NCBI GenBank assembly: GCA_018303805.1
Contig: JAGVXL010000001.1
Location: 110,208-174,207, forward strand
Length of the DNA stretch: 64,000 bases
Source: Candidatus Pacearchaeota archaeon
GTDB lineage: Archaea; Nanobdellota; Nanobdellia; Pacearchaeales; DTIR01
Reading direction: 5' to 3'
Below, one piece after another: positions 6,272 through 62,650 of this stretch. The notes below the pieces were generated by a model. It worked only from the letters and a program-made list of their open reading frames with translations, was not told where the DNA came from and ran no database searches. The translations under genes and the position numbers were made by a program. How positions within the stretch are numbered: position 1 is the first letter of the stretch; every line of letters starts with the position of its first letter.

Positions 6272-6287
6272 GAAAAAATACAAAAAA

Positions 6288-6406
6288 GCCCCGACCGAGG
6301 ATTGAACTCGGGACCTTGTCCTTTTTGTTTTCTCTCCAAAGTCCCTTCTTTTGAAAAGAAGAGAGCTTTTACCAAGGACACGCTCTACCAACTGAGCCAT
6401 CGGGGC
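6288..6406 (-). tRNA. tRNA-Thr (anticodon GGU) with an intron of about 46 nt at position 37/38
   Basis: Read on the minus strand: acceptor GCCCCGA/TCGGGGC, D-arm GGCTCAGTTGGTAGAGCG, anticodon stem TGTCC/GGACA with loop TTGGTA|intron|A, T-arm CCGAG-TTCAATC-CTCGG. No CCA is encoded. A TATA-like TTTTTAAATT sits about 25 nt upstream. Confidence 0.75.
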
Positions 6407-6725: not shown

Positions 6726-9437
6726 TTATATTCTTTTCGGAAATAGGATTTGATACAAAGCCTTGATACTCTCCCCAGTTATTGGTGCTGGTTCTGGTGC
6801 AGGAGGCGCTTCAGGTTGTTGAGTTTCAGCCATTGGTTCTGTATTAGGTTCAGGAACAGTCTCAGGCCTTTCTTCAGGTGCTAAAATAGGCTCGTGTAAT
6901 TCAATCCTTTCAGCTTTCTCTTCTATTTCTTGAATATTATCTTCTATATCTCTGATTTCCTCTTTAATCTCCTCCGCCCTCTCTGTATCTGGTTTTATTT
7001 CCTCTGCATTCCTTTCAGCCCTTTCTGCAATCTTGTTTATTTGTTCATTTGTTATGTATGCTTGGTTTCCCTCTTTGTCTACTATCATCCTGTCACCGTT
7101 TTTCATCCTCTCTTCATTTATCTTGGACATGAGTATATCACAGGCAGACTCATCCATAACCCCCATATCAATGCATTCTCTTGGCAGTCTTACTTCACCT
7201 CTTTCCTCAAGAGTTTTTATTCTTCTCAAACACTCTTCCTCCCCTTCCTTGCATGCCCTTTCAACCTGCTCAAGTCTTTCCAATCTCTCTGTTTGCTCAA
7301 GTCTTTCAGTTTGTGGAATTATAATGCCTTTTTCTTCCATAATCTTCCTGCATTCTTCAGGCTCTTTTCCCGCACATTCAGGAGGCATGTTAATTCCTAT
7401 TCCTTCCTCTCTTCTTTGTTTCTCCATAAATCTGCCGCAATCGTCTGGGTTCAAGATATTGGCTTCACGACAAGGGCCTGGAATATTCTCATTCACAAGT
7501 TTGCTTTCTAGAATATGCTGGCATTCTTGTGGTGAAACAGCTTGTCCATTTACAACACATTCTCTTGGGATGTTCGAAATATCACTAGGAGCAGGAAGAG
7601 TAATTCCCATATCCGCCAGAGCCTTATCACACTCCATTCCTCTTACAAAATTTACTCCCCTCTTGCATACATCAGGAAGGCTTTCAAAATCAATTCCCAA
7701 TCTCTCGAGTTCAGGAGATAATCTAACCATATTCTTTGCCATTACCCTTGCACATTCTTCTGGCTCTGATATTCCCTCTTCTTGGCATTCTTCTGGCATG
7801 TTTTTCTTTATTTTCCAGGCATCACATTCCTCTCTGCTGAATATGCCAGCGTCTTTGCAGTCTCCTGGCAGAAGAACCCTTTTGCATGCTTCAGGTGTTA
7901 ATGCATTTGCATCCTGGCAATCTTGAGGAAGATATTTCTCCATTATAAAACTCTCGCATTCATCAAATGTCAAGCCAACGCACTCTTGAGGAATTCTCAT
8001 CTCTCCACTCCATCCACCTCTTGTTCCTCTTGCGTATCCCCCTTGCTCTCCCTGTTGTGGCTGAGGCATTCCTCTTTCTCTCATAATTTTATTGCATTCT
8101 TCTTGGGAAACTGGTTGCCCGTCTCTTATACATTCCCGGGGTATATTACCAACTGCCTGCCCGGGCATTCCTCTTTGAGGCATAATCCCCAATTCATTCA
8201 TTATTTCCATGCATTCATCAGGTGTGACTGGTTTTCCATCTTTGATGCATTCCTGCGGAATGTTCTCCATTCCCCCTCTACCCCTTTCCACCATTATTCT
8301 TTCGCATTCCTCTCTTGGGATTGGCTTGCCGTCTCTTATGCATTCTTGCGGTATCTTGCCGCTTCTCATCATCTTCTCTTCGCATCTCTCAGGACCAATG
8401 AACTCACCATTTTCCATGCATTCTGTTGGTGGCGGCCCATATTTTCCAATCATAATCTTCTCACATTCCTCCTTTGTCGTTGCTCCTGCCTCTATGCATT
8501 CGCTGGGGGCATGCTTCTCCATCATAATCTTCTCGCATTCCTCCCTTGTCTGCGCATTTGCCTCTACACATTCTGGAGGGGCAATTTTTTCAAACATCTC
8601 CTTTTCCTTTTTATTAATTAAATCATCCATTGTTTTTTGAAAGAACGGCTTGAGAAAAGCAGGTATGTTGCTTGGAAGTTCTGGCTTTATATCCCTTAAC
8701 TCTTTGCAGGCAGAATCATCCTTTTGGAATTCGCATCTTATTGCCAATGCCTTGCTTTTTTCGCAGTTTGCCCTTACATCCAATATAGGAATATCAGAGC
8801 AGTCACATTCTCTTGGGTCATTGATGCATATTGTCATTTGCTCAACCATTTTTTGGCCAGCTTCTTCCTGCTTCTTCTTTACTTCTTTGTCAATCTTATC
8901 CCTTAACCATGGGAGAGCATTTTCTTGGTTGCATTTAGGCTCTTTTAACATCAAATCGTAATCCTGAATTGCCAATTCCTTGCATAATTCAAGAACCTTG
9001 TCAGAGAGTTCTACTGCAAACTGTGTTTTTTGCTCCTCGCTAAGATGCTTTTCTAAATAAGCTGAAAATTCAGGGTTAATTTCCTTGCTTTCCATAATCT
9101 TGTCAATTACTTCTTGAACACTAACATTTATATTGGAGGACATATCTGGAGAAGACTCTTCTTGAATAATCTTCAATTTCTCTTTTGCTCTCTCCAAATC
9201 CTTAATTGCTTCCCCTACATTTCCAGCTTTAATATTTTCAATTGCCGCATTAATGTCCTTTTCTCTTGCTTCTAATGCCACTTCAGCCTTTTTCTCGCCA
9301 GTTGCAAAAAATATTCTCAAATCATCAACAATCCTGCCTGTAATGGAGTAAAAAGAAACAGGTTGCGCGGCGACAACATTAGAGAGCAGGATAAACATCA
9401 TGAAGAAGGCGATTATCTTTCTCACTTCCTTTCTCAT
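6726..9437 (-). CDS. Secreted 903-aa protein with at least nine tandem two-cysteine 'EC...EC..IM' modules, an N-terminal coiled coil and a Pro-rich C-terminus
   Basis: Signal peptide MRKEVRKIIAFFMMFILLSNVVAAQ. Repeats of the form IPQECIRDGKPIPREECERIMVERG, IPQECIKDGKPVTPDECMEIMNELG, IPRECIRDGQPVSQEECNKIMRERG, PPECVEANAQTREECEKIMMEKH and others. C-terminus PEAPPAPEPAPITGE. Confidence 0.7.
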   Translation of the reverse strand: MRKEVRKIIAFFMMFILLSNVVAAQPVSFYSITGRIVDDLRIFFATGEKKAEVALEAREKDINAAIENIKAGNVGEAIKDLERAKEKLKIIQEESSPDMSSNINVSVQEVIDKIMESKEINPEFSAYLEKHLSEEQKTQFAVELSDKVLELCKELAIQDYDLMLKEPKCNQENALPWLRDKIDKEVKKKQEEAGQKMVEQMTICINDPRECDCSDIPILDVRANCEKSKALAIRCEFQKDDSACKELRDIKPELPSNIPAFLKPFFQKTMDDLINKKEKEMFEKIAPPECVEANAQTREECEKIMMEKHAPSECIEAGATTKEECEKIMIGKYGPPPTECMENGEFIGPERCEEKMMRSGKIPQECIRDGKPIPREECERIMVERGRGGMENIPQECIKDGKPVTPDECMEIMNELGIMPQRGMPGQAVGNIPRECIRDGQPVSQEECNKIMRERGMPQPQQGEQGGYARGTRGGWSGEMRIPQECVGLTFDECESFIMEKYLPQDCQDANALTPEACKRVLLPGDCKDAGIFSREECDAWKIKKNMPEECQEEGISEPEECARVMAKNMVRLSPELERLGIDFESLPDVCKRGVNFVRGMECDKALADMGITLPAPSDISNIPRECVVNGQAVSPQECQHILESKLVNENIPGPCREANILNPDDCGRFMEKQRREEGIGINMPPECAGKEPEECRKIMEEKGIIIPQTERLEQTERLERLEQVERACKEGEEECLRRIKTLEERGEVRLPRECIDMGVMDESACDILMSKINEERMKNGDRMIVDKEGNQAYITNEQINKIAERAERNAEEIKPDTERAEEIKEEIRDIEDNIQEIEEKAERIELHEPILAPEERPETVPEPNTEPMAETQQPEAPPAPEPAPITGESIKALYQILFPKRI

Positions 9438-9523
9438 GAAAATTATAATACTAAAGGGTATATAAAATTTTTCAGTCCTTAATGAGATAGATTTTTAAAT
9501 TTGTCAAACCTACCCAAGAACAT

Positions 9524-9595
9524 AGCCCTGTAGTCTAGTGGTCCAGGATAATTGGCTCTGGCCCAGTTGACCTCGGTTCGAATCCGAGCAGGGCT
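9524..9595 (+). tRNA. tRNA-Gln (anticodon CUG)
   Basis: A1:U72 acceptor pair (AGCCCTG/CAGGGCT), which is typical of archaeal tRNA-Gln. Anticodon stem ATTGG/CCAGT with loop CTCTGGC. T-arm CCTCG-GTTCGAATC-CGAG region. A TATA-like TTTTAAAT sits about 30 nt upstream. No CCA is encoded. Confidence 0.75.
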
Positions 9596-9599
9596 ATAT

Positions 9600-9821
9600 G
9601 CTCCCGTAGTATAGCGGTCAAGTATTCGGGCCTCTCGTCTACAGTTTCTCTTTAGAAACAGAGGAAATCTGCTGATTTCCTACGCCCCGAAAAGCCCGTG
9701 ATGCTCGCTTCGGCGAGGATTGCCTGCTTTTCGCGGAGAGAAGCTATAGGTAGGTAGAGAAACTACAATTCAAAAAGTAGAGAGAACGCCTGAGACACGG
9801 GTTCGAGTCCCGTCGGGAGCA
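9600..9821 (+). tRNA. tRNA-Glu (anticodon CUC) interrupted by an intron of about 149 nt at 37/38
   Basis: 5' exon 9600..9637: GCTCCCG-TA-GTAT-AGCGGTCAA-GTAT-T-CGGGC-CTCTCG. 3' exon 9787..9821: C-GCCTG-AGAC-ACGGG-TTCGAGT-CCCGT-CGGGAGC-A. The intron's 3' end GAGAG can pair with the loop CTCTC, which is BHB-like. It starts only 4 nt after tRNA-Gln. Confidence 0.6.
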
Positions 9822-9932
9822 TGAGGGGATTTTAGCGGGAGCTATAGAAATTATTATCATTTTATTTTTAAAATTCTTGAAACCAACCTACAAGAGTAAT
9901 AGACAAATAGAATTTTCTGGAAGTATAAAAAG

Positions 9933-10598
9933 TCAACAAAGTGTTATATTCTTTTGATTTTTCCATCTCATATCAAAAGTAGCGGATAAAGATTGTATTA
10001 AATCCTTCACTAATTTTATCGGTAATTCAATAATAAAACTTTCTTTATTCCTAACAGAAAATCCATGACCTAGAATGTATAAGACATCTACCGTAAGAAT
10101 ATATCTATCATGTAAATGATTAAAACTAAATCCCTTGATATCAATATTAGAATTCTCCTTTTTGAAATCTTGTAAATCTTTTTGTGAAACTTTTATGTTA
10201 TTCTTGTTATTGAATGTTAAAAACCTAACCTTTGCTTTTTTTATTTTCTCTAATGCTTCTAGAGTATCGTTAGTTAAATAGGGATCACATATCCTTACAT
10301 CTCCTCTAATGTTATTAAGTATAGAAATAAAATTCTTACGAGAAGTTCTAGGTCTTTCTGGTTCAAAGTAATACACTTGTATTTCTTCTTCTTTTCTTGC
10401 TGGAAATCTTTGTCTAAATCCTTTCCCCTCTTTTCTTAAGAATTTTTTAACAGACGGCAATCTTAAAGTCATAGAAATATTACTCGAGCTTATTTTCCAT
10501 TTATCCCATATCTGTTGCTCTATTTTTTTCTTAGTTCTTATATTTTCAAAGAAACCATCTGTCCATAATTGCTTGATTGCTTCAAGAGGCTTTTTCAT
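9933..10598 (-). CDS. Hypothetical 221-aa protein with a degenerate PLD-like motif
   Basis: Full ORF in a low-GC stretch. The motif HLHDRYILTVD...GHGFSVRN resembles an HxK(x)4D...GSxN phospholipase-D-type motif but lacks the Lys. Confidence 0.45.
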   Translation of the reverse strand: MKKPLEAIKQLWTDGFFENIRTKKKIEQQIWDKWKISSSNISMTLRLPSVKKFLRKEGKGFRQRFPARKEEEIQVYYFEPERPRTSRKNFISILNNIRGDVRICDPYLTNDTLEALEKIKKAKVRFLTFNNKNNIKVSQKDLQDFKKENSNIDIKGFSFNHLHDRYILTVDVLYILGHGFSVRNKESFIIELPIKLVKDLIQSLSATFDMRWKNQKNITLC

Positions 10599-10959
10599 TT
10601 TTTAATAGTTTTGGGAGCATTGCTTTAATGAATTGTATAGCCGCTACTTCAGAAATTTTGAGTTGTCTTTCTTTTTCTTCGATTACTTTCTCCTTTACAA
10701 GTTCACTTACCCTATTTAAGATACTTTTATGAGTAATTTTAGATAATAATCCCTTTGCCATAGATATGTCCTCTCTAGATAATGTATCTTTAGGAAGTAT
10801 CTTACATTTAAAACCAATAAGTGCTGTAGTTAATGTTAAAAATATCAGATCATTTGCTTGGATATCAGAACTGCTATTTTATTATCGCTGGTTATCTCTA
10901 CTACTTTTTCTAATTCCTTAAACAATTCTTCAAATTTCATTCTTTCCTCGATCTCCTAT

Positions 10960-11172
10960 TCATATATAATATCTATAAAATACCCCTTCCTTTTTTCTCT
11001 TTAATCTTTCTCTTCTCAAAAGATAAAGTAGATTTACTCTTATATCCTGCAAATTAAAATTATGGCCTGTTCTGTCCTTAATCTCTTTCTTTATTTCCTC
11101 TGCTAGCTTAGGAGTCTTAAGAAAATCACCCAAATCCAATATTCTTTCAGCAATACTTTTTTTATCACTCAT
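10960..11172 (-). CDS. Small (70-aa) winged-helix-like DNA-binding protein
   Basis: ORF whose stop and start overlap its neighbours. The C-terminus LLYLLRRERLKRKKEGVFYRYYI is wHTH-like. Confidence 0.4.
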   Translation of the reverse strand: MSDKKSIAERILDLGDFLKTPKLAEEIKKEIKDRTGHNFNLQDIRVNLLYLLRRERLKRKKEGVFYRYYI

Positions 11173-11399
11173 TTTTGCCTCTTTTTATACCTCCACTCTC
11201 CTTGCTCATTTTTTTCTCTTTCTAAAATGCCTTCTCTACACAGGAATGTTAACAATTGAGATAAAAGGCTCACTTGCTTACCTTTTAGTGTATAACCTCT
11301 ATTGTCTATTTTAGCTACAACTTCTTCAATCTTTCTAGGCTGGTCAAAAAATCCCTCTGATGCAAACTCTTTTAGCATGTTCTTATTTATTCCTGCCAT
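11169..11399 (-). CDS. Small (76-aa) winged-helix-like DNA-binding protein
   Basis: LSQLLTFLCREGILEREKNEQGEWRYKKR is a wHTH recognition-helix plus wing pattern. It overlaps its neighbours by 4 nt and 17 nt. Confidence 0.4.
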   Translation of the reverse strand: MAGINKNMLKEFASEGFFDQPRKIEEVVAKIDNRGYTLKGKQVSLLSQLLTFLCREGILEREKNEQGEWRYKKRQK

Positions 11400-11889
11400 T
11401 CTTTAAATCCTCCAAATGATTCTTGCCAGACTGGCTTACATTCCAACAATTGAGTCCTTCCTTCTTTTGTTCAGCCCGAATCAAAAACCCCCTCTTATCT
11501 AAAAGTTGTATTTTATCTGCTATATTTTTTGGAACAACCTCTCTCATCTCAGACAATGTAGCAGCAATTTCCTTTGTTGTAATCTCCCTTACACCTTTAA
11601 GCTCAAGGAAATGTATAACAACAAGAGTCTTGTCAGTGTCTTTTTGAGGAGCATATCTCAAAAAGAACTCTCTTGAAGACTCTTTTATTAGCGTCGGCTT
11701 TGGCTCATTTTCAGGACTTTTATTTTCAAGATTACTGAGCCTTTTTTCCTGTTCGTCTAATCTCTTGCTTATGTTTTCTAGAAGGTCAATTGCCTTATCC
11801 AGCTTTTCTTCTGTCATTTTGTTTCCTCCCCTGTCAATTATGTCCAGAAGGAGGGAAAAGAGCTTTTTAAATCTTTTGGTTCTATTCAT
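11383..11889 (-). CDS. 168-aa protein with a coiled coil and a C-terminal wHTH
   Basis: The N-terminal half is helical and E/K-rich. The C-terminus LLDKRGFLIRAEQKKEGLNCWNVSQSG is wHTH-like. It is the first gene of the three-gene minus-strand operon. Confidence 0.45.
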   Translation of the reverse strand: MNRTKRFKKLFSLLLDIIDRGGNKMTEEKLDKAIDLLENISKRLDEQEKRLSNLENKSPENEPKPTLIKESSREFFLRYAPQKDTDKTLVVIHFLELKGVREITTKEIAATLSEMREVVPKNIADKIQLLDKRGFLIRAEQKKEGLNCWNVSQSGKNHLEDLKNGRNK

Positions 11890-11907
11890 AAACTAGCATG
11901 AACCCTG

Positions 11908-11966
11908 CCAAAATAATATTAGTTGTGCTTTCCTCCCTGTGATCTCCTGCTTTCCCCATTCTATCA
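11908..11966. repeat. 59-bp direct repeat, copy 1
   Basis: CCAAAATAATATTAGTTGTGCTTTCCTCCCTGTGATCTCCTGCTTTCCCCATTCTATCA, identical to 12184..12242. Confidence 0.85.
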
Positions 11967-12183
11967 TTTTTATCTCTCACCTATCTTACAATCATATTCG
12001 ATATTCATAGTAAAAAAACCTTAATACCTATTGGCTTAGGGTAATATCAATAGAAGATTAAGAGGATGATCATAAGATTACTGCCGATATGGTAATATCA
12101 ATCAATGAATTATGAAAATATCATCATTTTTTTATTCGTGAATTATGAAAATAGTATAAAATCATAGTATAATAAAGTATTTA

Positions 12184-12242
12184 CCAAAATAATATTAGTT
12201 GTGCTTTCCTCCCTGTGATCTCCTGCTTTCCCCATTCTATCA
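12184..12242. repeat. 59-bp direct repeat, copy 2
   Basis: A perfect copy of 11908..11966. The 217-bp AT-rich spacer between the copies contains its own short repeats (GGTAATATCAAT x2, GAATTATGAAAATA x2). Confidence 0.85.
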
Positions 12243-12391
12243 CCAGTATGCGGACCAAGATCAACAAATCCAGAAAACAAGAGAATCCCACAGAGCCTCG
12301 AGCAGAATTTTGGTAATCTTTATAGATTATAGCGAAAGGTTTAAAAATAGGAGTTATATAAGTATATATAATTGGAAAGATAGGAAATGAT

Positions 12392-12685
12392 ATGGATGAG
12401 ATGGAAGAAGTACAGGTAGTAAAAAATATCTTGCACTACCCCCGACTTGATACCGTTTTGATGGTAGAGAAAATGATAAGGAAATATGATGGTGAATATA
12501 TCAAAAAGCAGTTATGGGTAAAACTGCCCAAGAAAGTAATGTACCAGACATTTCTGCTTATTTTGGACTATCTTTTATACTCTGGAAAGATTTCAATTGA
12601 TTCAGAGGGAAAACTTGGGTGGATATTTTACCCAGAATCAGTTCAAAATAGAATAAAACATAAAAATTTGTTTTGGGAAAAATGA
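12392..12685 (+). CDS. Putative antitoxin (97 aa) of a RelE/ParE-type pair
   Basis: Small ORF that overlaps the downstream toxin-like gene by 13 nt, which is the usual TA arrangement. It has no distinctive motif of its own. Confidence 0.4.
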   Translation: MDEMEEVQVVKNILHYPRLDTVLMVEKMIRKYDGEYIKKQLWVKLPKKVMYQTFLLILDYLLYSGKISIDSEGKLGWIFYPESVQNRIKHKNLFWEK

Positions 12686-13017
12686 GGCTTCCATCAAAAT
12701 TGCAGTTTGTTGATGCGAATTTAAAGAAAGCATTTGAAGAGCTCGCCAATTCAAGTTCGCAGGAAAAGAGCTTATATCGATATCTCGAGAGGGCATTCGC
12801 CGATATTGAAAAGAATGCATTTTGTGGAATACAGATACCAAAAAGGCTTATCCCAAAAAGCTATCTTAAAAAGTATAAAATCAAGGACCTTTGGAAGTAT
12901 AACTTGCCAAATGCATGGCGCCTTTTATACTCAATAGAACATGGTGAAATTTATGTTCTGTCAATACTTCTAGAGTGGATGGATCATAAGGAATATGAGA
13001 GAAAGTTTGGGTATTGA
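12673..13017 (+). CDS. RelE/ParE-family toxin (114 aa)
   Basis: C-terminal KDLWKYNLPNAWRLLYSIEHGEIYVLSILLEWMDHKEYERKF fits the RelE/ParE core (...WRLIY.I....I.VL.I.HRKD.Y). Confidence 0.6.
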   Translation: MGKMRLPSKLQFVDANLKKAFEELANSSSQEKSLYRYLERAFADIEKNAFCGIQIPKRLIPKSYLKKYKIKDLWKYNLPNAWRLLYSIEHGEIYVLSILLEWMDHKEYERKFGY

Positions 13018-13068
13018 TTAAATTCCTTTTATAATCAAAAATCTCCTCAGGTCCGTCGGGAGCATTTT

Positions 13069-13770
13069 TTACAATTCAAAATTCACAGGCTTCCAGAACC
13101 TTAAATCATCCAGAGAAATAAATACAGGCATTATTGATTTTGCCTGCTCAACCTCATTATTTGTGCCGTTGGAAGGGTTCATGAAATAAAATATATCACT
13201 TTTGTCTCTCAGCAAGTCCTTTTCCAATGCAATGCATTCCCGCTCCCCAAACCCCCTTTCCTCCCAAAAGGCAAACAAGTTATGAGGAACAAGGGGGATA
13301 TAGCCAAGTTTTGCTATTTCCATTGCTGTGTTATCCGCCTTTTTGATATTCTCCTGCTTTTCCTCTTTTGTTCCAGAATATGGGCCAGCAACATAAACTG
13401 CAAGTTTCTTCACGCAAAGGGCATAGACCCCCTCCTGTTTAATGTTTTCAGCATAGCCTGGAAACTGCAGTGACTTGTCAATGGCCTCCTTCAAAGTTTT
13501 GGCATCAGGCCAGACATTCTGGACACCCTCATTTATAAGCAGTTTCTCTATGTTGTCGTAATGCCTGCAATACCTGACAGCGGCTTTTAATACCTCGTGA
13601 TTTATATCCTCAAAATGCAGCCAGTCATTTTCCTTGAATTCAGCATAGTTTTTTTCCCCGTCAGCAGGATCAGGTACTCTTGGGTCAATAATCCTTCTCC
13701 CTATTGCCCGCATGTCTGCTAGATGCTCAGGATAAATTTTCTTCAAGAAATATTCTTTTCTATCCACCAT
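13069..13770 (-). CDS. 233-aa protein with a C-terminal SLOG / nucleoside 2-deoxyribosyltransferase-like (DUF4406-like) domain
   Basis: KLAVYVAGPYSGTKEEKQENIKKADNTAMEIAKLGYIPLVPHN contains the Y-x-AGP-x-x-G motif of the NDT/Rcl/DUF4406 flavodoxin-like superfamily. The N-terminal 120 aa are unknown. It overlaps the upstream radical SAM gene by 11 nt. Confidence 0.5.
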   Translation of the reverse strand: MVDRKEYFLKKIYPEHLADMRAIGRRIIDPRVPDPADGEKNYAEFKENDWLHFEDINHEVLKAAVRYCRHYDNIEKLLINEGVQNVWPDAKTLKEAIDKSLQFPGYAENIKQEGVYALCVKKLAVYVAGPYSGTKEEKQENIKKADNTAMEIAKLGYIPLVPHNLFAFWEERGFGERECIALEKDLLRDKSDIFYFMNPSNGTNNEVEQAKSIMPVFISLDDLRFWKPVNFEL

Positions 13771-29265: not shown

Positions 29266-29392
29266 TGCCCGGATGGCACAATGGCAATGCGCAAGGTTGC
29301 TAAAAGCCTTTCTTAACAAGAAAGCCTTGGGAAAGAAACTACAAACACCTTGTTTCCGCAAGGATATGCAGGTTCGATTCCTGCTCCGGGCG
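29266..29392 (+). tRNA. tRNA-Ser (anticodon GCU) with an intron of about 44 nt at 37/38
   Basis: Acceptor GCCCGGA/TCCGGGC+G. Anticodon stem CAAGG/CCTTG with loop TTGCTA|intron|A. Long variable arm TTTCCGCAAGGATAT. T-arm GCAGG-TTCGATT-CCTGC. The intron contains an internal hairpin CTTTCTT/AAGAAAG. Confidence 0.7.
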
Positions 29393-30145: not shown

Positions 30146-30264
30146 AGCGCGGTGGAGCAGCCTGGTTAGCTCGCGAGGCCCATAAAATTAAGGTTTCCTT
30201 AATTTATAAGAAATCTTGATTTCGGATACCTCGAGGTCGCATGGTTCAAATCCTGCCCGCGCTA
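30146..30264 (+). tRNA. tRNA with anticodon CAU (Met, possibly initiator; or Ile2), carrying an intron of about 43 nt at 37/38
   Basis: A1:U72 acceptor pair (AGCGCGG/CCGCGCT+A). D-arm GAGC-AGCCTGGTTA-GCTC. Anticodon stem CGAGG/CCTCG with loop CCCATA|intron|A. The intron has a 9-bp hairpin AAATTAAGG/CCTTAATTT. The T-arm GCATGG-TTCAAAT-CCTGC has one bulged U. Confidence 0.6.
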
Positions 30265-30313
30265 CTCTTCATCATTCTATAAAGGTAACAATAAAAAAGC
30301 TTTTAAATAACAA

Positions 30314-48049: not shown

Positions 48050-48247
48050 TTTTTAATTTTGATTTATCTTTTCTATAAGACTTTTTCCAAACATCCTCTT
48101 TTTCAATTTATCTTTCCGCGAAAAGCCGTGCTTTTTTTGGGCATGGAAAATTCGTGTTTTCCTCACCGAAGTGAGCCTTGCCTGATTTTCTCTGTAGAGA
48201 AGCTCTGCTTTCCTCTGCTAAGAGAAAGTTTTTATTTATAAAAGTTT

Positions 48248-62480: not shown

Positions 62481-62484
62481 TTTT

Positions 62485-62636
62485 TACATGGAAATTGAAT
62501 TGTTAATTTCAAATGAATTATCTGATAATTTCTTTGCTGAAGTGTAATCAATCATAGCAAGGATGTTTCCTTTTATTGCAGCATCTAAATCTTCCTGCCT
62601 TCTTTCAAATAATTTTGCTTGTGTATATTGTTCCAT
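62485..62636 (-). CDS. Possible small (50-aa) ORF between rpoB and rpoA
   Basis: MEQYTQAKLFERRQEDLDAAIKGNILAMIDYTSAKKLSDNSFEINNSISM. Its stop abuts the rpoA start. It fills an otherwise unexplained 170-nt gap. Confidence 0.2.
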
Positions 62637-62650
62637 TCTCAATTTTTTTC

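Follow-up and report, generated by a model that had tools for sequence, protein, structure and literature searches.

A 149-nt intron in an archaeal tRNA-Glu(CUC) gene that probably consists largely of a copy of a dispersed, hairpin-rich repeat

Introduction

Archaeal tRNA introns are reported to range from 11 to 129 nt in length, with medians of 12-25 nt (PMC4090602). In Thermoproteales, similar introns common to different tRNA genes have been described as 'intron transposition' (Fujishima et al. 2010, in the summary given in PMC4090602). Such families of similar short introns are the sole systematic evidence on how archaeal tRNA genes gain endonuclease-spliced introns. Here, we analyzed a tRNA-Glu(CUC) gene with an intron of 149 nt, which lies in a 64,000-nt stretch of archaeal DNA from contig JAGVXL010000001.1 (the window; positions in other loci are prefixed with the label of the locus).

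Miniature inverted-repeat transposable elements (MITEs) and extragenic palindromic repeats of the REP/BIME type (repetitive extragenic palindromic sequence/bacterial interspersed mosaic element), such as bacterial REPs and the MITEs of Sulfolobus, are short, non-coding and hairpin-rich and have terminal inverted repeats. The bulk of the tRNA-Glu intron resembles such repeats in organization. Related copies occupy introns of three other tRNA genes and intergenic spacers, and presence of the repeat varies between genomes.

Results

The tRNA-Glu(CUC) gene has an intron at the canonical position

The gene and its upstream neighbor comprise the following features, in which L061 denotes the locus of an archaeal metagenome-assembled genome (MAG) with the closest tRNA-Glu gene.

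9524-9596, forward strand: intron-less tRNA-Gln(CUG), first gene of a Gln-Glu tandem (61.3 bits with the Rfam tRNA model; also called by ARAGORN)
9600-9637, forward strand: 5' exon of tRNA-Glu(CUC), 38 nt (positions 1-37 plus one extra D-loop base), 36/38 identical to the L061 orthologue
9638-9786, forward strand: intron, 149 nt, at canonical position 37/38 (splice-motif scan, length given by ARAGORN -i, and 166 bits with covariance model R1)
9787-9821, forward strand: 3' exon, 35 nt including discriminator A, 34/35 identical to L061
9632-9642, forward strand: 5' half of the splice motif; CUCU 9632-9635 (central helix), bulge C G|U 9636-9638 (cut after 9637), CUAC 9639-9642 (inner helix)
9777-9787, forward strand: 3' half of the splice motif; GUAG 9777-9780, AGAG 9781-9784, bulge A A|C 9785-9787 (cut after 9786)

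A cloverleaf was obtained only once the 149 nt were taken out; ARAGORN then called the joined exons as a regular tRNA-Glu(CUC) of 73 nt, of which 70 positions match those of L061. The region was scanned exhaustively for helix-bulge-helix-bulge-helix arrangements, a search that the first-pass annotation of this DNA had suggested, and the bulge-helix-bulge (BHB) at 37/38 was the unique best solution, far above all other candidates. It has two 3-nt bulges on opposite strands with a 4-bp helix between them, all four pairs of which are formed (CUCU/AGAG), and the predicted cuts fall in the bulges. The inner helix is CUAC/GUAG (4 bp), and the anticodon stem serves as outer helix (7 bp). A second, weak BHB at 9643-9757, whose outer helix is 2 bp, was on par with chance matches and was rejected. 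Thus, the two exons of 38 and 35 nt, the BHB-like pairing of the intron 3' end with the anticodon loop and the unusual length of the intron, which exceeds the range of 11-129 nt given in the 2014 review (PMC4090602), all stood as first described. These results confirmed, at the level of sequence, that 9600-9821 is a real archaeal tRNA-Glu gene with an unusually long, canonical-position intron predicted to be normally spliceable.

The tRNA-Gln gene ends at 9596 and tRNA-Glu starts at 9600, leaving a spacer of 3 nt (9597-9599) rather than the 4 nt cited when co-transcription of the two was first proposed; the tandem unit itself was upheld and its arrangement is kept in L061 and in another relative, L126. 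The TATA-like TTTTTAAAT upstream of tRNA-Gln, read by eye at about 9493-9501, is a putative promoter element of this unit.

The tRNA-Glu gene was absent from the default output of ARAGORN and from that of the Rfam tRNA model (gathering threshold and E<=10); at E<=10, the latter detected just the T-arm, with 14.5 bits. When introns were enabled, ARAGORN found an intron of 149 nt with its junction shifted by 3 nt, resulting in a false call of Ser(AGA). At least four of the six ARAGORN-called tRNA genes in the window contain introns. Default tRNA finders overlook genes of this kind or assign them a wrong anticodon, which contributes to the 'missing tRNAs' described in DPANN genomes (PMC5829648). 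One further tRNA gene (Leu, with a 26-nt intron) at 30146-30265 on the forward strand was called by ARAGORN with introns enabled and lies below the Rfam gathering score.

The 421 nt around the tRNA-Glu gene are 100% identical in at least six independent assemblies from different samples, which excludes an assembly artefact as the origin of the intron. Being identical, the copies offer no variation to analyze.

Most of the intron is a hairpin-rich domain with inverted termini

About 125 nt of the 149-nt intron constitute a conserved domain, which consists of a closing helix, a three-way junction and two hairpins.

9643-9651, forward strand: 5' strand of the closing helix and left terminal inverted repeat, AGTTTCTCT; pairs with 9737-9745 and forms a perfect 9-bp inverted repeat with 9756-9764
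9662-9681, forward strand: hairpin 1, AGGAAAUC-UGCU-GAUUUCCU, 8 bp with a variable loop; five of the eight pairs show double changes across seven family members
9685-9736, forward strand: hairpin 2, 24-nt arms with a UUCG loop at 9709-9712; the 'C-box-like' GUGAUG lies in paired bases
9737-9745, forward strand: 3' strand of the closing helix, AGAGAAGCT; pairs with 9643-9651
9756-9764, forward strand: right terminal inverted repeat, AGAGAAACT, a second copy of the closing-helix 3' strand
9762-9786, forward strand: intron tail (last 25 nt), CTACAATTCAAAAAGTAGAGAGAA, corresponding to the whole 22-nt intron of L061 (local alignment score 29 versus 15.3 +/- 2.6 for shuffles)

The terminal inverted repeats AGTTTCTCT and AGAGAAACT are 100% complementary and border the segment that is missing from L061, which is also flanked by the direct repeats CTACA/TACA. 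Further, 19 nt of the intron are duplicated in tandem (9737-9755/9756-9774). The folding stability, compared with that of shuffled sequences, gave z scores of -4.8 for the intron and -5.0 for the pre-tRNA. The UUCG-capped hairpin and the strings GTGATGC and CTGA noted by the first-pass annotation are all present. The irregularities of hairpin 2 are limited to 1x1 and 2x2 symmetric mismatches, and AGAGAA comes next to it.

We also considered a nested BHB-like motif (outer helix of 11 bp, central helix AGAA/UUUU), which would free a 74-nt hairpin module and appeared in three copies. This candidate was ruled out because its inner helix has a single base pair and its formation would compete with the stem of hairpin 2; moreover, it is kept neither in the tRNA-Arg copy described below nor, as judged by eye, in the copy at 48 kb.

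Similar introns occupy tRNA genes of three other identities

A metagenome scan with the hairpin-2 pattern returned 26 matches, 23 of which were chance matches in coding regions. The other three were true homologues, located in two contigs of one metagenome of the Joint Genome Institute (JGI), and together with a neighboring tRNA gene in L153 they revealed the following introns.

L153: intron of tRNA-Arg(UCU), 147 nt, at 37/38
L153: intron of tRNA-Cys(GCA), 108 nt, at 37/38; hairpin 2 lacks its upper half
L163:6792-6961, reverse strand: intron of tRNA-Ser(UGA), 170 nt, at 37/38; an extra hairpin lies within the loop of hairpin 1

The spliced Arg, Cys and Ser tRNAs were all correctly called by ARAGORN. 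As in a transposed intron family, similar introns of four tRNA identities were recognized by one model, R1, at 123-166 bits (123-158 bits for Arg, Cys and Ser; 166 bits for Glu), and they are 85-95% identical outside their host-specific tails. All four start with TC(T/C)ACAGTTTCT right after position 37, and the common stretch runs to CTA(C/T)AAT. The last 4-18 nt differ from one intron to another and are complementary to the anticodon loop of the respective host. The strict splice motif is found solely in the Glu copy of the window, with relaxed motifs in Arg, Cys and Ser, for which a splicing endonuclease (EndA) of broad specificity would be expected. The loci L153, L163 and L159 (see below) share no overlapping genes with the window. 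A metagenome scan with the 5' exon pattern gave no match, and five scans of viral contigs gave either no match or a chance match (L167).

The tRNA-Cys(GCA) and tRNA-Arg(UCU) genes lie about 200 nt apart at L153:7875-8478 on the reverse strand, both with a family intron. The insertion in the hairpin-1 loop of the Ser(UGA) intron, about 31 nt, is itself a hairpin (UCCAUC-UGAU-GAUGGA), that is, an element nested in an element.

The window also contains two tRNA genes with shorter introns, namely tRNA-Thr(GGU) at 6287-6406 on the reverse strand (about 46 nt) and tRNA-Ser(GCU) at 29267-29392 on the forward strand (about 44 nt). These two introns are mutually homologous (score 35 versus 14 +/- 3), and the Thr(GGU) gene was miscalled as Phe(AAA) by ARAGORN through a junction slide. 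The Ser(GCU) intron shares AGAAACTACAA with the long intron family; homology between it and the Glu intron was borderline, with 2/500 shuffles reaching the score, and was not accepted.

Diverged copies of the repeat fill intergenic spacers

A BLAST search with the intron as query detected no second copy in the window or in 124 loci; diverged copies surfaced only with covariance models run unfiltered.

48050-48247, unstranded: diverged repeat copy filling a 198-nt spacer between two reverse-strand genes (325 aa and 1424 aa); 28.6 bits with model R2, filters off
L168:6304-6467, antisense to the rpo genes: repeat copy filling the 164-nt rpoH-rpoB spacer; 50.5 and 87 bits

The copy at 48050-48247 aligned locally to the intron with a score of 55 versus 24.5 +/- 3.7. 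The rpoH-rpoB copy lies on the same contig as the window, about 2.1 kb past the window end. It has two compensatory changes in hairpin 2, and both of its ends are formed by the same terminal module of about 25 nt, inverted relative to each other. Together with the intron (9638-9786), three copies are thus present in about 98 kb of the source contig. Further, L159 and L140 each contain one intergenic copy, that of L159 having the same hairpin 2 as the intron copies. The remaining archaeal loci compared, roughly 1 Mb, yielded no further copy. The intron copies are flanked by TACA/CTACA (with one mismatch in Arg and Ser) and the rpo-spacer copy by TGAAT.

Related genomes contain filled and empty sites

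The closest named relatives by protein sequence were MAGs of Pacearchaeota, Nanoarchaeia and Woesearchaeota (RpoB 68-72% identical, DUF7768 protein 50-53% identical). Because these are the nearest named protein relatives, we assigned the organism of the window to the DPANN archaea.

A scan of species-representative genomes with the 3' exon gave 120 tRNA-Glu loci, among which the 37/38 introns were 15-107 nt long, and the 149 nt of the window is the longest in this sample. In L061, where neighboring proteins are 60-75% identical to those of the window, the gene order is the same (radical-SAM gene, DUF7768 gene, tRNA-Glu, tRNA-Gln, 86-aa gene). The tRNA-Glu intron of L061 is 22 nt, TCTACATAAAAAGTAAAGAGAA, and aligns to the first 6 and the last ~16 bases of the window intron. 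At the syntenic place, tRNA-Glu is intron-less in L126 (CUC) and L128 (UUC). Thus, the length of this intron is 149 nt in the window and 22 nt in L061, and the intron is lacking in L126. The 22-nt intron may be an empty site; alternatively, a deletion between the two CTACA repeats may have produced it. The closer relative (L125 and L139, with 85-87% amino-acid identity) falls outside this comparison, as its two contigs stop just short of the tRNA pair.

Similarly, the rpoH-rpoB spacer, filled by a repeat copy, is 164 nt in the window contig, compared with 8 nt in L172 (from the same genome as L061, RpoB 87% identical) and 51 nt in L173 (from a 74% relative).

Several other insertions were observed in these genomes. 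The tRNA-Glu(CUC) of L025, a Pacearchaeota MAG, has a 107-nt intron at 37/38 unrelated in sequence to that of the window; long tRNA-Glu introns therefore recur in DPANN. The tRNA-Gln(CUG) of L061 has an intron of about 26 nt (reverse strand, ~790-890 of the reversed locus), which the tRNA-Gln of the window lacks, so that intron content flips between the tandem members Gln and Glu across relatives. At L139:5022-5720 (87% protein identity), an intron-less tRNA-Thr is followed by an inserted open reading frame (ORF) of 211 aa with a faint LAGLIDADG match, placed between tRNA-Thr and an 82-aa gene. Finally, the rpoB-rpoA' spacer of the window (62481-62650) is 170 nt with a 50-aa ORF, compared with 5-6 nt in L172 and L173, and constitutes another lineage-specific insertion inside the RNA polymerase operon.

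Compensatory changes occur in the paired regions of the repeat

In the family consensus, the closing helix begins with intron base 1 and leads to a three-way junction, from which hairpin 1 (8 bp) and the long, UUCG-capped hairpin 2 emerge. The Arg and Ser copies have a compensatory change of C-G to U-A in the closing helix, and a change of U-A to A-U occurs in hairpin 1 among the intron copies; the diverged copies show compensatory changes in hairpin 2. When all seven family members were compared, the diverged ones among them, 94% of cells were paired. Eight pairs show double changes, compared with 2.5 +/- 1.2 in shuffles (0/500 shuffles reached eight) and at most two in slid controls of the same seven members. 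In the full-length intron copies (Glu, Arg and Ser), 1/51 columns of hairpin 2 vary, compared with 13/80 outside it (p=0.009).

The intron does not resemble box C/D or H/ACA small RNAs

The first-pass annotation had interpreted GTGATGC and CTGA as C/D-box-like elements and suggested a comparison with C/D models. This reading failed: the presumed C box, GUGAU at 9697-9701, pairs by Watson-Crick and GU pairs with AUUGC at 9718-9722 in a symmetric helix, and hairpin 2 offers no way to draw a kink-turn, for which a 3-nt bulge and tandem G-A pairs would be needed. The presumed D box, CUGA, precedes the C-like box by 22 nt instead of following it, reversing the box order. It sits in the loop and 3' strand of hairpin 1, and is missing from the Arg and Cys homologues (2/3). 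No internal C'/D' boxes at the guide spacing of about 12 nt were found in the intron sequence. The best Rfam C/D match to the intron was on the opposite strand, with 16.5 bits versus a gathering score of 39 (E=3.4), and no Rfam C/D family rose above noise. The intron does not qualify as an H/ACA small RNA either, given that hairpin 2 contains symmetric mismatches only and is followed by AGAGAA. No Rfam family was found on the intron or the L159 copy at E<=10.

Insertions flank the tRNA pair

Downstream of tRNA-Glu, a low-GC stretch of about 3.2 kb (9823-13065) contains small ORFs and is missing in three syntenic relatives. This island is bounded by a 13-bp direct repeat, which is not part of the intron.

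9810-9822, forward strand: left copy of the 13-bp direct repeat, CCGTCGGGAGCAT, at the 3' end of tRNA-Glu
13053-13065, forward strand: right copy; the sequence beyond it is homologous to that directly after tRNA-Glu in L126

The island had been noted as starting about 110 nt downstream of the tRNA and attributed to integration there. It starts directly at the tRNA 3' end; the 13-bp repeats and its absence in three relatives bear out a genuine insertion, which looks like an element integrated at the 3' end of tRNA-Glu. No integrase was recognized among the small ORFs of the island with Pfam and PHROGs. The intron tail (9764-9775) and the sequence just past the right island repeat (13070-13081) share the 12 nt TACAATTCAAAA, probably by chance in AT-rich DNA.

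On the other side, a 903-aa ORF (6726-9437, reverse strand) with a signal-peptide-like start and no Pfam or PHROG match lies between tRNA-Gln and the 86-aa gene. These two genes are adjacent in L061 and L126, and the tRNA pair of the window therefore has lineage-specific insertions on both sides.

Discussion

We concluded that the bulk of the intron is probably a copy of a MITE/REP-like dispersed repeat, or that the intron carries one, tolerated because it would be spliced out. We adopted this reading because the element is non-coding and hairpin-rich with inverted termini, is dispersed in several copies per genome, and is found at filled sites whose orthologues are empty.

According to this reading, tRNA-Glu(CUC) would be transcribed jointly with tRNA-Gln, 3 nt upstream. 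The strict BHB would present the intron to the archaeal tRNA-splicing endonuclease, with cuts after G37 (9637) and A9786, and the closing helix of the repeat would appose the two splice sites. The exons would then be ligated and the intron freed, probably as a circle by analogy with the known pathway, since circular release has been recorded for other archaeal tRNA introns (PMC4090602; PMC12558985). A possibly selfish repeat could survive in tRNA genes without harm since splicing would remove it. The common flanks of the four introns suggest that the whole intron may have passed between tRNA genes, as proposed for Thermoproteales.

Several observations weigh against an inserted repeat of this kind. 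The stronger conservation of hairpin 2 than of the rest of the element hints at selection for function. The covariation counts fit an RNA structure and a DNA palindrome alike and cannot separate the two, and they come from few members, which are related to each other. Copy number is poorly known because about 98 kb of the genome was searched, and no transposase or autonomous partner was found in the window, which is part of the genome only. The putative target duplications are unequal in length (TACA versus TGAAT) and could be chance or the element's own sequence. Further, the four introns share the flanks TC-TACA...TACA-AT besides the repeat, which appears to fit transfer of the whole intron between tRNA genes better than four insertions.

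The alternative that survives best is that the domain of hairpins 1 and 2 is a functional small RNA, neither C/D nor H/ACA, delivered by intron excision, as a C/D RNA is from the tRNA-Trp intron, as well as by intergenic expression; the length of the intron would then be due to the RNA that it hosts. The near invariance of hairpin 2 in the three full-length introns (1/51 columns) and the same hairpin in L159, while flanks differ by 5-15%, would agree with this, as would compensatory changes maintaining both hairpins, a fold far more stable than those of shuffles, and T-runs after the intergenic copies of L159 and L140. However, the tRNA-Cys and L140 copies lack the upper half of hairpin 2, the L140 copy folds unconvincingly (z -2.0), and neither the L061 orthologue nor the short Thr and Ser introns contain the module at all. 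The intergenic copies are strongly diverged and lie in either orientation relative to flanking genes, no Rfam family matches, and the hairpins of a DNA transposon would covary likewise. We therefore consider a functional RNA unlikely. The same domain might represent a new class of structured RNA of DPANN archaea, freed from long tRNA introns by the splicing endonuclease, probably as a circle, and also made intergenically, with the intron moving between tRNA genes. This proposal appears doubtful to us; if true, it would provide a traceable, recent case of the gain of an endonuclease-spliced intron.

Alternatively, the gene could be a pseudogene, inactivated by an unspliced insertion in the anticodon loop. 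Standard tRNA finders overlook the gene, and the inserted segment resembles a mobile repeat. However, the gene has a complete, strict splice motif and intact exons that are nearly identical to those of the orthologue, and it keeps its tandem arrangement with tRNA-Gln. Further, the element sits exactly at 37/38 in four tRNAs, and in each of them the intron tail complements the anticodon loop of the host, which is unexpected in dead genes; inactivation is thus quite improbable. Least probable is a box C/D guide small RNA encoded in the intron: although the intron holds GUGAUGC (6/7 of RUGAUGA) and CUGA and there is a precedent in archaeal tRNA-Trp introns (PMC4090602), box order, pairing, conservation and Rfam score refuted it at the sequence level.

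If the bulk of the intron is indeed a dispersed repeat, the locus adds a second, unrelated lineage, DPANN, to the evidence on intron gain, with one element of about 125 nt in four tRNAs at exactly 37/38 and in intergenic spacers. The filled and empty sites would tie intron gain and intron size to a dispersed repeat, which is testable within one aquifer community. In the literature searched, we found no description of a repeat-bearing intron family of DPANN archaea.

Comparison with known systems

Archaeal BHB introns at 37/38 are cut by EndA, and RtcB joins the exons. The locus agrees with them in position, in having two 3-nt bulges around a 4-bp helix with helices on either side, and in the cloverleaf restored on removal. 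It differs in that the introns of this family are 108-170 nt long and contain a conserved domain with a three-way junction, which also occurs as a dispersed repeat. The tRNA-Trp intron of Haloferax and Pyrococcus, which hosts a box C/D small RNA, is likewise a long canonical-position intron with a structured RNA module; in contrast, the module described here lacks C/D and kink-turn features, is independent of its host and is dispensable in relatives.

As far as the intron families of Thermoproteales are summarised in the review cited above, they resemble the present family in that near-identical introns are found in tRNA genes for different amino acids (here Glu, Arg, Cys and Ser) and are gained and lost rapidly between close relatives. 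The present family differs in belonging to DPANN, in using the canonical site throughout, in being several times longer and in having a core that also occurs outside tRNA genes. Like MITEs and REPs, and by description rather than by sequence, the repeat is dispersed in intergenic spacers, including one inside an operon, and its presence varies between genomes. Unlike them, it resides in tRNA introns at exactly 37/38, with no partner transposase identified.

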